Of a stretch of DNA of 30,330 nt, positions 5,708 through 29,479 are shown one piece after another. Below the pieces are notes generated by a model, which saw only the letters and a program-made list of their open reading frames with translations, did no database searches and was not told the DNA's origin. Each line of letters begins with the position of its first letter. Position 1 is the stretch's first letter. The stretch is from Candidatus Omnitrophota bacterium (GTDB lineage Bacteria > Omnitrophota > Gorgyraeia > Aquiviventales > Aquiviventaceae): contig JACPAW010000141.1 of NCBI GenBank assembly GCA_016180605.1, forward strand, positions 1 through 30,330, given 5' to 3'. A program made the position numbers and the translations under genes.

Positions 5708-5797
5708 GTTTCGGCAGCTAGGCTACCTTGGCGCATGCTGTAGGCCCTATGGCTTTGCGACCCTGCCTTTCGGCACCCGCCGCATCGTTTCAGCGGG
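5708..5797 (-). ncRNA. c-di-GMP-I (GEMM-I)-like riboswitch aptamer with divergent 5' half
   Basis: UGCC-GAAA-GGCA hairpin, GGGUCGCAAAGCC junction, AUAGGGCCUA...AGGUAGCCUAGCUGCCG P3 arm. Lies upstream of a terminator and of surface/pilus genes. Confidence 0.75.
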
Positions 5798-5922
5798 CCC
5801 GCCACGATCTGTGGCGCAGGTGTGCTCTTATCGTTCAGAGCTCTTACGAACCGAAAACGCTGAGGGCAGTCTTTGAGGGCAATCAATCACTGAAGGCTTG
5901 TCTGAGGGTTATTACTTCTCCA

Positions 5923-23290: not shown

Positions 23291-24256
23291 TCATGGTGGT
23301 GGCGTAGACGCAGCCAGCGGTACGCGTGACATCCGTTGGCGTGCAACCAAGCTCCGGTAGGGAATGGGGTCAAGAGCCACCGCTTGTTGCACCAGGCGAT
23401 AGAAGAGCTTCCCACGGTAACGGGACAGCCGCCGATTGAACCGGAACGTGAACTCATTGAGGTAGTCATCAAGATGCTCATGCGAGACTCGACCCTGGTG
23501 GATGCCCAAGAGCCAGCGTTTGAGCAGGGCCGCGACCCGATGGACCCGGGGCAGCAGGGTCGAAGCGGTGCGGCCACTGCCGCTGACTTTCCGAGGCCAA
23601 TGGCGGTAGCCATGCTCGACCAAGCCGGGGTAGGCCGTCCAGCCATCTGTGATGACCACCGCTCCAGGAGCGATCACCGCTCAGACGAAACCGACCAGAC
23701 TCTCCGCAGACGCGTCAGGGATTCGGCGCAGATGGATGCGGCCGATGCCACCACCTTGGACTTCAGCCGCTGCCGCGACCAACGCTTTGGTCCGTCCCAG
23801 GTGGCGCTTGCCGCCACCTGGCTCGACACCTCCGAGGTAGATTTCATCCACCTCCACCTCCTCGGTCAATGGTTCCCGGCCTGGGCGAGTCATGGCCCAC
23901 CGCAACTTGTGCAGAATCGCCCACGCCGTCTCGTAGCGACTCAACCCCAGCGTCCGTTGGAGGCCCAAGGCGCTCACACCGCTCTTCTGGTTCGTCACCC
24001 ACCAGATCGCTTGGAACCACACGCGCAGGGGCAGCTGACTGCGATGGAACACCGTCCCCGCCGTCACCGATACCTCATGGCTACAGGCACAGCACTGCCA
24101 GAGGTGCCGACTGGTACGCCAGGCTCGGCTATGGCCACAGCGGGAACAGCGAAAGCCCTGCGGCCACCGCAACTGGGCCAAATACGCCCGGCAGGCGTCC
24201 TCGGTGCGGAAGCGGTCTTCGAACTCCAGCATGGTGCGAGGATACGCTTCGTCCAC
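23291..24256 (-). pseudogene. IS1595-family transposase interrupted by one in-frame TGA
   Basis: Zn ribbon CSRC...CCAC, HTH, VEVDE, ITDGW, LPRVH...LKRWL, YLNEFTFRFNRR. The two ORF-track pieces share a frame and are separated only by TGA (23683-23681) plus one codon. Confidence 0.9.
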
Positions 24257-24302: not shown

Positions 24303-24881
24303 TCAGAGGCGTATCAGGTACAGCTTAAGCCTGAGCAACCGAATGTGCTCGCGCAGAGAGCGGATTTCGATGTCGATTTGCCGGGCGTCTTGCATCATTT
24401 CATCCAACTGGGTTTGGTTAAGCCTGGCCTCATCGGAGCCTTGAGAAGCCTGGATGGCTTTGCGCAACTGCGCGATGGATCGCCCGAAGCTCGAGCGCTG
24501 CAAACGCTTCACGCGCAATTCCCCAGAAGCCATGGCAAGGGCTGCATTGAGCTGCTGGCGCTGGGGTTCCAGTTGTTTTTTCGCCTCCGCGATCCTCGCT
24601 TTCACGCTAGCCGCAGCCGCCTCCAAGTCTTTGCGCATTTGAGCAATCGCATGCTCAACGGTTTCCCGTTTCAATGTCAGCTCTTTTTCATAGGTCGCAA
24701 TGCGGCTGAGCAGCTCCTGGTGGCGTTCCAATACCCGGGCGAATTTGGGATCTTGATGAGTGACTTCATTGAGGAGTTGTTCACGGCTGACAGGCGGACT
24801 GCATCCTGCAGTCAAGAAGAGGAGAAAAAGAAAGCTTTGCAGAAGAGCGTGATGACGCTTAAGCTCAAGGCGTCCGTGCAT
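24303..24881 (-). CDS. Coiled-coil lipoprotein of unknown function
   Basis: Lipobox LTAGC after a hydrophobic stretch; heptad-rich E/K/R/Q/A/L sequence. Confidence 0.75.
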   Translation of the reverse strand: MHGRLELKRHHALLQSFLFLLFLTAGCSPPVSREQLLNEVTHQDPKFARVLERHQELLSRIATYEKELTLKRETVEHAIAQMRKDLEAAAASVKARIAEAKKQLEPQRQQLNAALAMASGELRVKRLQRSSFGRSIAQLRKAIQASQGSDEARLNQTQLDEMMQDARQIDIEIRSLREHIRLLRLKLYLIRL

Positions 24882-25239: not shown

Positions 25240-26400
25240 CTATTGGATCAAAGCGTAAGAAGGCTCAACGACTGGAGAGCGAACGCCGGTTTGTTCTTCG
25301 CGGTAGGTGAATATTTTCCCCGCGAAATTCCGCAGCGTCCACACTCCGTCCTTTACGCTCACGACGTAATTGGGCATGAGAGGAATCTTACCCCCGCCCC
25401 CTGGGCCATCCACGACGAACGTCGGGACGGCATAACCGCTGGTGTGCCCGCGTAGCTTCTCGATGATCTGCAGACCCGCCGCAACCGGCGTACGGAAGTG
25501 AGCGGTCCCTTTAACCGGGTCGCATTGGTAAATATAGTAGGGTCGAACGCGCGTTTTGAGCAGTTCATGAAAGAGCTTTTTCATGATTGCCGGCCGGTCG
25601 TTGATTCCTTTAAGGAGGACCGTTTGAGAACCCAGCGGGACTCCGCTGTCAGCCAACATGCCGCATGCTTTTCTGACCGCAGGGGTCACCTCTTTTGGAT
25701 GATTGAAATGCAAGCTCATCCAAACCGGTTTATGTTTTTGCAAAACCGCGCACAAAGATTCCGTCACCCGATAAGGCAGGGTTACGGGATTGCGCGTCCC
25801 AATCCGGATAAACTCGACATGGGGAATGCTGCGGAGTTTGGTGATCACCTCATCCAGCCGCTCATCGGAAAGCGTCAAAGGGTCTCCCCCCGAAATGAGC
25901 ACGTCTCGAATCTTTCGGTGCGCCTTGATGTAGTCGATTGCCACATCAATATTGGCCGGTTTACTAAAGCCCGCACTGGTTCCGACGACCCGGCTGCGCG
26001 TGCAGAAACGGCAGTACATGGAGCAGACTTCAACCACGAGCAACAGCACCCGATCCGGGTATCGGTGTACCAAGCCCGGTACTGGCATGTGGCTGTCTTC
26101 TCCAAGCGGATCGATCATGTCATTGGGGCTGAGCCGATATTCTTCTTCAACCGGTACGGCCTGCCGACGAATGGGGCATGTCGGATCATCCGGATCCATG
26201 AGTGCCGCCCAATAGGGCGGAATCCCCATGATGAAGCGCCCGGAGCGGCGCGTGGCCGCCTGCTCTTCGGTAGGGCTTAAACGGATGACCTGCCGCAATT
26301 GTTCCACCGTCTGGATCCGATTAGCCATTTGCCATCGGTACGTTTCCCACTGTTCTTGGGGAACGTCCTTCCATAACGGGATCCGTCGATAGGCTTCCAC
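25240..26400 (-). CDS. KamA-family radical SAM aminomutase (lysine 2,3-aminomutase-like)
   Basis: PGLVHRYPDRVL, CSMYCRFCTR (CX3CX2C), LISGGDPL, HFNHP, QTVLLKGIND, YYIYQCD, GGGGKIP (PLP Lys). SD GGAGG and GTG start. Confidence 0.92.
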   Translation of the reverse strand: MEAYRRIPLWKDVPQEQWETYRWQMANRIQTVEQLRQVIRLSPTEEQAATRRSGRFIMGIPPYWAALMDPDDPTCPIRRQAVPVEEEYRLSPNDMIDPLGEDSHMPVPGLVHRYPDRVLLLVVEVCSMYCRFCTRSRVVGTSAGFSKPANIDVAIDYIKAHRKIRDVLISGGDPLTLSDERLDEVITKLRSIPHVEFIRIGTRNPVTLPYRVTESLCAVLQKHKPVWMSLHFNHPKEVTPAVRKACGMLADSGVPLGSQTVLLKGINDRPAIMKKLFHELLKTRVRPYYIYQCDPVKGTAHFRTPVAAGLQIIEKLRGHTSGYAVPTFVVDGPGGGGKIPLMPNYVVSVKDGVWTLRNFAGKIFTYREEQTGVRSPVVEPSYALIQ

Positions 26401-26412
26401 GGTTAGCCTCCT

Positions 26413-27528
26413 TTAGCCTGAAATTCTCAAGGAGCTATAGGAATCCGCAAACTCCGTGCTTGCGGATGGCTCTTGAGAACAGGTGATCGATCGCTCCGAA
26501 GACCTACAAACATCTGCCCCGCTCCGATAGCGGGCCATTGCCAGTTCGACAATTCGTTGAATCAGCTTATCGTGTGAAAAGCCAGCGGCTTGCGTGGCAA
26601 TAGGAAAATTGCTGTCCAGCGGGCTTAATCCAGGAAGGGGGTTGACTTCCAGGACAAACGGAACGCCGTCTGCACGCAGCCGGATATCGGTACGGGAAAA
26701 ATCGCGGCAGCCCAATGCGCGGTGCGCACGCAAAGCGACTTCCTTTACTCTGGCCATGACCCTACCCTCGATGCGTGCAGGACAAAACAGCTGGGGAGCC
26801 AAGCCCAATGCCTGGTTGCCCTGGAACTCTTTCATCCTCCAAGAGTAGAAAAATTCTCCACCCTGGCGGCAAGTGGAAAAATCGATCTCGATAGGAGGCA
26901 AAACCTCATTGTCAATGACGCCAACGGTCAGCTCAATGCCCTCAATGAATTCTTCCACCAGCACTTCCTGCTGATAGCGATCCGCCACAATGGCGATTTG
27001 CCGCCGAAGGGACGCCTCATCTCCTACGACACTTTCGCGCCAAATCCCAATACTGGAACCCTCGCGATTGGGTTTGACGATCAGTGGAAATCCAAGGGAA
27101 GGATTCAGGGGTGCTTGTGCGATGGCAAATAGCTGCCATGCCGGAGTCGGAATGTCTTCTGCAGCCAAGATCTGCTTGGTCTTGGTTTTATCCAGCGCCA
27201 AGGCCAGCGTGACGCTGTTGGAACCCGTAAAGGGAATATTTAAAGCTTCCAGCACTGCCGGCACCTGGGATTCGCGGTGTTCCCCGTCGTTTCCTTCAGC
27301 AATATTAAAAACAAGGTCTACCGAATGCCTCAGAAACCAATGCGGCAAATCAGGATTGGCTTCCACCAAATGCACGGTGTGACCTGCCGCACGCAGGCTT
27401 TGCGCAATCGCATCGATTGTCATCTGGCTATCGAACTCCGATTCCTGATCCTTAGGGGTCCAATGGAGCCCGCCGGACGGCCTGGAATGGCGCTTGAGAT
27501 TGTAAGTTAATGCGATCGTGTAGTGTAT
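26413..27528 (-). CDS. D-Ala-D-Ala ligase-like ATP-grasp protein 2 (start codon uncertain)
   Basis: IALTYN...SEFD, FNIAEG, RESQVPAVLE, IVKPNREGSSIGI, VEEFIEG.E, SRTDIR, LEVNPLPG. No ATG/GTG/TTG in frame near the start of homology. Confidence 0.8.
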   Translation of the reverse strand: MHYTIALTYNLKRHSRPSGGLHWTPKDQESEFDSQMTIDAIAQSLRAAGHTVHLVEANPDLPHWFLRHSVDLVFNIAEGNDGEHRESQVPAVLEALNIPFTGSNSVTLALALDKTKTKQILAAEDIPTPAWQLFAIAQAPLNPSLGFPLIVKPNREGSSIGIWRESVVGDEASLRRQIAIVADRYQQEVLVEEFIEGIELTVGVIDNEVLPPIEIDFSTCRQGGEFFYSWRMKEFQGNQALGLAPQLFCPARIEGRVMARVKEVALRAHRALGCRDFSRTDIRLRADGVPFVLEVNPLPGLSPLDSNFPIATQAAGFSHDKLIQRIVELAMARYRSGADVCRSSERSITCSQEPSASTEFADSYSSLRISG

Positions 27529-28538
27529 AAGACACCCGCTTCGTCGCGCGGCTTCAACCCATACCGCGTCAAGGCTGCATTTAAAATCCGGTTGATGACC
27601 TGGTAATGTGTCATTCCCCGGGTTTTCGCAATGTAGTTGAAAACATCTTCCGTAGACAAGGAAGGCAAGGGATTGATTTCCAGCACGTAAGGGTGCCCCT
27701 GGCGGTCCACACGGAAATCCACTCGCCCAAAATCGCGGCATTGGACCGCGCGATAGGTCCGCAATGCCAGCTCCTGCATTTTCTCCGCTAGGGTAGGCGG
27801 AATAGGTGCTGGACAAAGATAATCGGAGCCAGTCCGAAGATACGCGAAGGTAAAGAATTTACGGCCAAGGTCTGTGACGCCATCCAACGCGATCTGGACG
27901 ACGGGACAAGTTTCCGGCTCTTCATTCCCCACGATCGCAACGGTGAATTCCTGCCCTTCGATGAATTCCTCGATAAAGATCGTCGATTGCTTGTAGGTAT
28001 CGGTAAGCCAGCGGACTTGCCGGCGAAGCTCCTCGGGTGTGGCGACCAATGACTTTTCGCTTAAACCTTTGCTGGAACCTTCGCAGCGCAGCTTCACAAT
28101 CAACGGAAACGTCAGATCGACTTCCCAGAATTTATCCGGATCGTGAACCTCCAGGTAGCGCGGGGTGGGAATTCCTTCTGCAATCAAGACTTTTTTGGTC
28201 AGGACCTTATCGAGGGTCAGGCCCAAAGTCAGACCATCGGCCCCCACAAAGGGAATCCGCATCATTTCCAACAAGATGGGCACCTGCGATTCGCGATTAC
28301 GGCCTTCGTAGCCTTCTGCAATATTGAAGATGATGTCCACATCCAGTTTGCCCACCTGCTCCAAAAGCTGCCGGGCATTTCCAATGCGCACCACGCCATA
28401 CCCTGCTTCGCGGAAAGCGTTCTCGATGTGGTTGATCGTATCTTCGTGGTCGAATTCTGCATTCACATCTGGTGGATCGCCAGGTTTTGGCACCCACTCG
28501 CTTTTTACGTTATAAGTCAATCCCACCCGCAACGACAT
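27507..28538 (-). CDS. D-Ala-D-Ala ligase-like ATP-grasp protein 1
   Basis: VGLTYN...AEFD, FNIAEG, RESQVPILLE, IVKLRCEGSSKG, IEEFIEGQEF, GRVDFR, LEINPLP. Lacks the GG.S.E N-terminal motif of true Ddl. Confidence 0.9.
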   Translation of the reverse strand: MSLRVGLTYNVKSEWVPKPGDPPDVNAEFDHEDTINHIENAFREAGYGVVRIGNARQLLEQVGKLDVDIIFNIAEGYEGRNRESQVPILLEMMRIPFVGADGLTLGLTLDKVLTKKVLIAEGIPTPRYLEVHDPDKFWEVDLTFPLIVKLRCEGSSKGLSEKSLVATPEELRRQVRWLTDTYKQSTIFIEEFIEGQEFTVAIVGNEEPETCPVVQIALDGVTDLGRKFFTFAYLRTGSDYLCPAPIPPTLAEKMQELALRTYRAVQCRDFGRVDFRVDRQGHPYVLEINPLPSLSTEDVFNYIAKTRGMTHYQVINRILNAALTRYGLKPRDEAGVLYTTRSH

Positions 28539-28565
28539 CCCAACCTCTAAGGCTCTAAATTAAAG

Positions 28566-28593
28566 AAAAAAAGGACCCAGACTTTCTGAGTCC
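28566..28593 (-). terminator. Intrinsic terminator in the 5' leader of the ATP-grasp/KamA operon
   Basis: GGACUCAGA-AAG-UCUGGGUCC (9-bp stem) plus U7, 27 nt before ATG 28538. Confidence 0.8.
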
Positions 28594-28617
28594 CTCGTCA
28601 GAAGTCTTCAATTGTCT

Positions 28618-28703
28618 CACGTCTGATGCGGCAGTCCCTAAAACGTTACGCACAATCCACCGCAGATCGCGCGATCGTTTAAGGACCCAACAATCATCAC
28701 GTG
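28618..28703 (-). promoter_or_regulatory. Structured leader RNA (candidate orphan riboswitch/attenuator)
   Basis: Nested stems CACG-UGAUG/CAUCA-GA-CGUG and GUCCUUAAAC/GUUUUAGGGAC enclose a GAUC-GCGC-GAUC hairpin; no known family recognised. Confidence 0.55.
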
Positions 28704-28831
28704 TTTTCTCATTGCAATATAATTCGTACCATAGTGATTCCTTACTGTCAAGCCTGCTTGCACAAAAATTCAGAAATTTTTTCAACTGTATCCGCTACAA
28801 TGTTATAGTTTTCTCAACTACGAGGTCACGC

Positions 28832-29479
28832 ATGGGCACATTGGTACTCATTCGGCACGGACAATCGCAGTGGAATCTGGAAAATCGATTTACCGGGTGG
28901 GTCGACATCCCACTGACGGACTCCGGGCGCATGGAGGCGCGCCGCGGGGCTGAAATCATCAAGCATCTGAAATTCGACTGCGCTTTTACCTCAGCGCTGA
29001 AGCGTGCGGAAGAAACGCTGCGCATCGTTTTAGAAACGACCCGCCAGACCCATCTTCCCATTGAAAGAGATCCTGCCTTGAATGAGCGCCACTACGGAGC
29101 TCTCCAAGGACTGAATAAAGCGGAATTGGCCAAGAAGTTCGGCGAACAACAAGTCCATATTTGGCGCCGCAGTTATGATGTCGCACCTCCTAAGGACAAA
29201 ACGGAGTGGAATCTCGATGGAAAAAGCGAAAGCTTGAAAGATACCGCAGCGCGCACGCTTCCCTACTTCAAGAAGAGGATTCTTCCTTTGGTGGAATCGG
29301 GAAAAAATGTCCTGGTGGTCGCTCATGGCAATAGTTTGCGTTCCATCATCATGGACTTGGACCGAATGACCAAGGAACAAGTGCTGCAACTGAATATCGC
29401 CACAGGGGCTCCCATCCTCTATGAAATCGATTCCACAGGACGCGTCCTTAAGAAGATCGTGACAGAACTTCCGTCTTAG
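28832..29479 (+). CDS. gpmA: 2,3-bisphosphoglycerate-dependent phosphoglycerate mutase
   Basis: LIRHGQSQWNLENRFTGWVD, LNERHYGALQGLNK, WRRSYD, ESLKDT, VAHGNSLR. SD GAGGT before ATG 28832. Confidence 0.96.
   Translation: MGTLVLIRHGQSQWNLENRFTGWVDIPLTDSGRMEARRGAEIIKHLKFDCAFTSALKRAEETLRIVLETTRQTHLPIERDPALNERHYGALQGLNKAELAKKFGEQQVHIWRRSYDVAPPKDKTEWNLDGKSESLKDTAARTLPYFKKRILPLVESGKNVLVVAHGNSLRSIIMDLDRMTKEQVLQLNIATGAPILYEIDSTGRVLKKIVTELPS

Follow-up and report, generated by a model that had tools for sequence, protein, structure and literature searches.

The window, meaning the whole 30,330-nt stretch of DNA that was analysed, comes from an uncultured Omnitrophota bacterium of groundwater, and the sequencing runs that contain its leader sequence were groundwater DNA runs only. 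The putatively regulated operon occupies positions 25240..28538 of the minus strand and comprises three genes: a Ddl-like ATP-grasp gene (27507-28538 in the ORF call, with the Pfam domain Dala_Dala_lig_C), a second Ddl-like ATP-grasp gene (ORF 26413-27816, ending at 26413) and a lysine 2,3-aminomutase gene of the KamA family (25240-26400). Read from its first start codon, the second ATP-grasp ORF overlaps the end of the first gene by ~300 nt (27507-27816, minus strand). When aligned with the Clostridium subterminale lysine 2,3-aminomutase (PDB 2A5H), the operon KamA scored 460 bits and retained Asp293, Asp330 and Lys337, residues that we take from Frey's work to mark lysine specificity, which points to beta-lysine, made from free lysine, as its most likely product. 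A literature search for a characterised pathway combining KamA with two Ddl-like ligases returned nothing specific. Of 401 Omnitrophota genomes, 153 have an orthologue of the first gene. The operon contains no protease or exporter gene. Directly downstream, also on the minus strand, lie an IS1595-family transposase fragment with a zinc ribbon and a partial DDE domain (23681-24256) and a 192-aa ORF (24303-24881) with a weak OmpR-type winged-helix (Trans_reg_C-like) match.

The leader of this operon lies on the minus strand, between the first operon gene and a divergent gene for a 2,3-bisphosphoglycerate-dependent phosphoglycerate mutase (28832-29479, plus strand, ATG at 28832), a neighbourhood retained in many related genomes. 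Unless stated otherwise, the leader features described below are on the minus strand. The first ATP-grasp gene starts with an ATG at 28538-28536, preceded by the Shine-Dalgarno sequence GAGG at 28547-28544; in two orthologues (L138 and L133), the gene has no Shine-Dalgarno sequence and its ATG follows the leader terminator by 7-9 nt. At the other end of the leader, a -35 box TTGACA (28746..28751), invariant among all aligned leaders, stands 17 nt upstream of an extended -10-like box, TGG-TACGAA (28723..28731), in which TGGTA is invariant; relatives carry TAnnAA there, with the variants TAAGAA, TAGGAA and TAATAA. A simple sigma-70 scan did not call this -10-like box. We infer that the two boxes form the operon promoter and that transcription starts a few nucleotides 5' of an ATG at 28712. 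The conserved linker motif further downstream was inspected as a possible second -35, sigma-54 or ECF box and discarded, as no matching -10 box occurs at the proper spacing.

Conservation and structure of the leader

The leader occurs in ~50 orthologous Omnitrophota loci, always ahead of the Ddl-like/Ddl-like/lysine-2,3-aminomutase operon; these sequences are related, so that their counts overstate their independence. Within the same family, BLAST, protein-anchored searches and a covariance model (R1) recovered the leader in 22 of 35 genomes, each time directly upstream of a copy of the operon; there is one leader per genome, except for one genome (G026) with two, and metagenome contigs contributed ~25 more distinct versions. 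Model R1 had a single match in the genome, at 28607-28716. An earlier note on this DNA, made from the sequence alone, had described a riboswitch-like attenuator matching no class known to its author, and the searches against Rfam agree with it on this point. No family matched the leader when the 30,330-nt window was searched, the sole match at gathering score being a c-di-GMP-I riboswitch aptamer elsewhere in the window (5710-5836, minus strand, 42.6 bits against a gathering score of 35). With the limit relaxed to E = 10, positions 28450-28900 gave only one terminator-like sRNA match (15.6 bits against a threshold of 60), and no match was obtained in 17 orthologous loci. The leader is thus supported as an uncatalogued, conserved and structured element with an intrinsic terminator before the operon.

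The minimum-free-energy fold of the leader has -64.6 kcal/mol (z = -3.24). It contains both the outer and the inner stem named in the earlier note, here pairing 28704-28695 with 28628-28618 and 28688-28678 with 28643-28633. Both correspond to helices of a long hairpin at 28618..28704 that was delimited by the RNAalifold consensus, covariation counts and model R1. The hairpin consists of P1 (28700-28695 with 28628-28623, extended here to 28704/28618), P2 (28688-28678 with 28643-28633) and P3 (28673-28665 with 28657-28649), closed by a 7-nt loop (28664-28658). The last helix and its loop take the place of the GAUC-GCGC-GAUC mini-hairpin proposed in the note, which is not the conserved fold. Among 23 genomes, 94.8% of the cells were paired and 11 of 22 pairs had changed on both sides; none of 500 shuffles did as well as the real alignment, and controls with slid partners gave 25-47% pairing. 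P2 has been fully rewritten in some lineages (GACCGC/GCGGUC, UCAACA/UGUUGA, CGUUGC/GGUAACG); in P1 and the linker motif, the sequence itself is conserved and does not covary. The orthologous leaders thus bear out the conservation and strong covariation of P1-P3 that the note had asked to see. The hairpin is a single rod in which neither a junction nor a pocket is conserved, and its internal loops, which separate P1, P2 and P3, are free to vary. Conservation of unpaired bases is confined to the loop, where it follows the G-G-N periodicity of codons.

Two further pairings were considered and rejected: a pseudoknot joining CGGUG of the P3 loop to CACCG of the linker, since the loop variant UGGCG occurs without compensation in the linker, and a small conserved hairpin in the linker (GUUG/CAAC), which is lost in the window, in L005, in L006 and in others. 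Natural deletion variants without the 5' strand of P2 and without P3 also exist (L126 in genome G010, L095 in G008, and L181). They retain the promoter, a remnant of 3-20 codons of the first small ORF (sORF1, see below) that ends at or beside the NTG of the linker motif, the second small ORF (sORF2) and the terminator.

The intrinsic terminator (28562..28596) is a 12-bp stem-loop (28596-28570), also called as an RNAalifold helix, followed by a U-run, and it is present in 23 of 23 family leaders; the terminator announced in the note just before the first ATG is therefore real. The note had further seen interchangeable strands, and TGGGTCCTT does occur twice, on the plus strand at 28681-28689 and 28571-28579, in the hairpin and in the terminator, but the interchange of strands that it would allow in the minus-strand transcript is specific to the window. 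The longest word shared by hairpin and terminator has 9 nt in only 1 of 46 leaders, that of the window, and 4-7 nt in the other 45, which is the level of shuffled terminators. The second alternative hairpin, ACUUCUGA/UCAGAAAGU, is likewise peculiar to the window. When a ribosome footprint was masked at each sORF1 codon and the RNA refolded, the terminator stayed dominant in almost all leaders. No consistent partner was found for the 5' arm of the terminator in the interval before its 3' arm is made; pairing with the 5' strand of P2 was seen in ~10 of 23 leaders. An antiterminator of this kind, exposed by a stalled ribosome, was rejected: the terminator always forms at equilibrium, and the kinetic proxy gave pairing in only ~10/23. 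There is no conserved RNA antiterminator. Most of what the note observed holds up, but neither its strand-swap OFF switch nor its riboswitch reading is supported: no alternative pairing that would sequester the terminator is conserved, and the leader has two conserved ORFs.

Two small open reading frames in the leader

The long hairpin encloses most of sORF1, which has 24 codons and a TAG stop (28638..28712, MRKHVMIVGSLNDRAICGGLCVTF). Its ATG is invariant within an otherwise variable stretch, and in every complete leader it stands 10-11 nt after the -10-like box and 12 or 15 nt before GTGATG. The frame spans 24-26 codons across leaders and ends inside the 3' strand of P2; the place of the stop is conserved, the codon being mostly TGA, TAG in the window and TAA in two leaders. 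No Shine-Dalgarno sequence precedes the ATG, and sORF1 is probably leaderless or nearly so. In-frame ATG or GTG codons further upstream, inside the -10 region, were rejected as starts, because in 5 of 16 leaders they lie out of frame or run into a stop.

The hairpin loop reads Y-G-N G-G-N G-G-N, with variation only at the N positions and at Y, and thus encodes Cys or Arg followed by Gly-Gly. In the peptide, Gly-Gly is nearly invariant and is followed by Arg, Cys17 alternates with Arg, and the C-terminus is variable. The ratio pN/pS was 0.71 in frame versus 1.05-1.08 in the other two frames, which suggests weak but detectable selection on the peptide. Selection also acts on the RNA fold, as several compensatory stem changes alter sORF1 amino acids. 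Two leaders keep the hairpin with a damaged frame: codon 8 of L130 (genome G007) is an in-frame TGA, and L192 carries one extra base, so that its conserved CUGUGGCGG loop is read as Leu-Trp-Arg. Part of the conservation, that of the loop, therefore lies at the RNA level. In most leaders, the TGA of the NTGA motif lies in the sORF1 frame, and six independent stop-loss or internal-deletion variants (L126, L181, L166, L191, L192 and L095) still have an sORF1, shorter or longer, which ends on this TGA or 2 nt before the NTG. What had been taken for an aptamer thus looks like a translated small ORF.

sORF2 has 21 codons (28555..28620), starts with the GTG of the NTGA motif, reads through the terminator and ends at a TAG 16 nt before the ATP-grasp ATG. 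Among 46 leaders, its start codon is TTG in 31, GTG in 13 and CTG in 2, and never ATG. A Shine-Dalgarno sequence at the normal distance is absent; the GAGG lies ~15 nt upstream. The linker motif NTGA, which can also be read as UUGA-ACAA, is conserved and lies at a constant spacing from the terminator. Codon 3 is CAA or CAG and codon 4, in 34 of 46 leaders, is Leu written with five different codons; position 2 of the second codon is variable, contrary to a coding-type pattern.

Of 50 leaders, 46 have an sORF2 that crosses the terminator, and in 44 it stops between -21 and +16 nt from the gene ATG; in 22 leaders, the sORF2 stop shares bases with the gene start, in the form TGATG or ATGA. Where the gene starts with TGATG, NTG and ATG stand at 10 distinct distances (56-98 nt), and for 8 of these the TGA lies in frame with sORF2 (binomial p ~0.003); long spacers (L002, L018, L129, L096/L203) are bridged by sORF2s of 43-52 codons. 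The gene's own frame is also open across the terminator in ~40% of leaders, and such openness is partly expected, because G+C-rich stems and U-runs rarely hold stop codons. From the frame statistics over the different spacer lengths, we argue that the overlap between sORF2 and the gene start has been selected in the sORF1 family.

The hairpin with sORF1 is limited to this family (f1). In other Omnitrophota families (L096/L203, L097, L113, L109, L102, L104, L187 and L205), a uORF that begins at the TTG motif also covers the terminator and overlaps the gene start. Several families have, in the place of sORF1, a membrane-protein gene (C-terminus ...GLGCKD(I/L)AG...), which in L097, L100, L101, L113, L115, L118, L120 and L205 ends at AGGAGGTAG, just 5' of the TTG motif; through it, the operon may be linked to a channel-like gene. 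A group of AT-rich families (L098-L119) has TTGACA-N17-TG(G/A)TAAAAA, a GGAGG ~13 nt before a TTG(G/A)AAAAA motif and a shared terminator (AAGGGCTC...GAGCCCTT), and their leaders gave no match in Rfam. Frames in the AT-rich families are short, fragmented and often chained through ATGA overlaps, and make a weaker case.

A proposed relay of two uORFs and its alternatives

That a second conserved ORF extends across the terminator as far as the gene start suggests that antitermination is the work of ribosomes and not of a ligand. We propose, with a probability of about 0.5, that the leader is a translation-coupled (ribosome-occlusion) attenuator of the pyrBI/pyrE/ampC type, in which a relay from sORF1 to sORF2 is gated by the hairpin. 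Transcription would begin a few nt 5' of the sORF1 ATG, and the sORF1 mRNA would fold into a hairpin of ~30 bp, the 3' half of which ends 2 nt before the weak start of sORF2 (UUG/GUG/CUG). A ribosome on sORF1 would melt this hairpin and terminate 17 nt before NUGA or exactly on it, whereupon the same or a following ribosome would re-initiate at the NUG and trail RNA polymerase through the terminator. Translation of sORF2 would then keep the terminator hairpin from forming and be passed on to the operon; with sORF1 or sORF2 untranslated, or the ribosome lagging, the terminator would form and the operon would be off. The hairpin may also make the polymerase pause and so bring it into step with the ribosome. 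Candidate signals are translation capacity, amino-acid supply, stalling on the Cys/Arg-Gly-Gly codons and the stability of the hairpin. A ribosome parked over ~27 nt upstream of a terminator is unable to block it; translation that runs into the terminator or beside it does so (PMC4824070). The sORF1 stop in the window, 44 nt from the terminator, is therefore too far away to act directly. sORF2 has a weak start and an ill-spaced Shine-Dalgarno sequence and lies at the base of a stable hairpin, so it plausibly relies for translation on the ribosome that has just opened the hairpin through sORF1.

Four other explanations were weighed against the relay. The leader could combine a leaky terminator with a 5' hairpin that stabilises the mRNA, with no regulation and with ORFs that are by-products of composition or ancestry. 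The thermodynamic dominance of the terminator in the ribosome-masking simulations would fit this account, as would the weak coding signal and the open frames to be expected over GC-rich stems and U-runs. We nevertheless consider it unlikely, as it does not predict a frame kept over 8 of 10 distinct spacer lengths, junctions with overlapping stop and start that recur in independent variants and families, an invariant ATG in a variable stretch, or first genes that in some orthologues lack a Shine-Dalgarno sequence. A protein might control the leader instead, with an antiterminator or repressor, for example an operon enzyme or the neighbouring winged-helix-like protein, binding the hairpin, the UUGA-ACAA motif or both, and the ORFs being incidental. 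Sequence conservation without covariation in P1 and the linker motif, the constant spacing between motif and terminator and the weak Trans_reg_C-like ORF after the operon speak for such a protein. No candidate RNA-binding protein was identified, however, and the first base of the motif varies exactly as in a near-cognate start codon. The invariant ATG, the place of the stop, the NTG that is never ATG and the frame relation between NTG and gene would all stay unexplained, which makes protein control quite unlikely.

That P1-P3 binds a metabolite and so decides whether the terminator forms, the reading closest to the earlier note, has in its favour a conserved, covarying domain with a terminator next to it. 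At the nucleotide level, P1, the upper part of P3 and the loop stay conserved even in a leader with a broken frame (L130) and in one with a shifted frame (L192), and the lack of any matching family would make it a new class. We regard it as improbable: the hairpin is rod-like with freely varying internal loops, its conserved unpaired bases are codon-periodic, alternative pairing to the terminator is not conserved and a loop-linker pseudoknot lacks compensating changes. Moreover, an aptamer would have no use for an invariant ATG or a conserved stop, and variants without the 5' strand of P2 and without P3 retain promoter, junction and terminator. The least probable explanation, in our judgement a very improbable one, is that the sORF1 peptide itself has a function, as a RiPP-like precursor or scaffold on which the ATP-grasp ligases and the radical-SAM enzyme act, with a leaky terminator after its gene. 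A conserved small ORF with a nearly invariant Gly-Gly directly 5' of ATP-grasp and radical-SAM genes would suit a RiPP cluster, in which a terminator after the precursor gene is common. Yet the first gene has orthologues in 153 of 401 Omnitrophota genomes and the sORF1 hairpin occurs in one family only, so that the peptide does not co-occur with the enzymes across Omnitrophota genomes, and variants with a deleted or truncated sORF1 have intact enzymes. The variable C-terminus, the alternation of Cys17 with Arg and the pN/pS of 0.71 also stand against a RiPP, as do the Asp293 and Asp330 of a free-lysine aminomutase in KamA and an operon without protease or exporter.

Within the two-uORF relay, sORF1 could also be a sensing module, either a metabolite-dependent arrest peptide like TnaC and SpeFL or a hairpin gate responsive to ligand or temperature, that controls the handover to sORF2. 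We hold this to be doubtful, but, if true, it would describe a new three-part switch (sensor uORF, relay uORF and embedded terminator) that controls an uncharacterised beta-lysine conjugate pathway in an uncultured phylum. The relay, if it operates, would document translation-coupled attenuation, with a terminator within a uORF that overlaps the gene, in a phylum without a cultured model. It would also tie a beta-lysine/ATP-grasp operon tightly to translational status, which would be a clue to the role of the product. The leader also illustrates how a covarying hairpin can be misread as an orphan riboswitch when its coding potential is ignored.

Comparison with known leader systems

Like the riboswitches in Rfam, the element combines a conserved, folded 5' leader with a terminator downstream, and unlike them it matches no Rfam family, forms a rod-shaped hairpin without a pocket and shows coding-type substitutions. 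Neither a conserved unpaired pocket nor a conserved mutually exclusive pairing was found in it. With the leader-peptide attenuators of trp, his and leu, it shares a short leader ORF, a large hairpin (possibly a pause or anti-antiterminator) and an intrinsic terminator before the operon. It differs from them in that its peptides have no run of regulatory codons, there is no conserved antiterminator helix of the 2:3 kind and the sORF1 stop lies 44 nt from the terminator.

Short 5' ORFs that control a downstream operon without a Shine-Dalgarno sequence are known from the mycobacterial leaderless sORFs (polycysteine attenuators) and from TnaC/SpeFL (bioRxiv 10.1101/834739; PMC9031893). sORF1 has about the same size as TnaC and a few nearly invariant residues close to the stop. 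Unlike the polycysteine attenuators, it has a single Cys codon, which alternates with Arg, and termination here is intrinsic and not Rho-dependent.

The E. coli ampC attenuator serves growth-rate control, with a very short frame or ribosome-binding site beside the leader terminator, the occupancy of which sets readthrough. The AT-rich Omnitrophota families, with frames of 3-7 codons before the terminator, come closest to it, whereas in the window family the terminator lies within an 18-30-codon ORF coupled to the first gene, with a further sORF and a hairpin upstream.

In E. coli pyrBI and pyrE, as here, an intrinsic terminator accompanies an ORF of the leader, being embedded in it (pyrL) or directly following it (rph-pyrE) (PMC5021804; PMC4824070). 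The pyrBI attenuator is suppressed when ribosomes translate the pyrL leader (PMC5021804 and its ref. 4): in both operons, a ribosome close behind RNA polymerase stops the terminator hairpin from forming, and readthrough reflects transcription-translation coupling (PMC5021804; PMC4824070). The Omnitrophota leader differs in having two ORFs in relay, the first within a large covarying hairpin beside the non-AUG start of the second, and in a linker without an evident U-rich, UTP-sensing pause region. Its genes would serve a beta-lysine conjugate rather than pyrimidines, and the sequences are not similar. The leader has both an intrinsic terminator ahead of the first gene and a conserved ORF overlapping that terminator, two of the features that characterise ribosome occlusion, and with moderate confidence, at roughly even odds, we consider the element a new, family-specific variant of translation-coupled attenuation.
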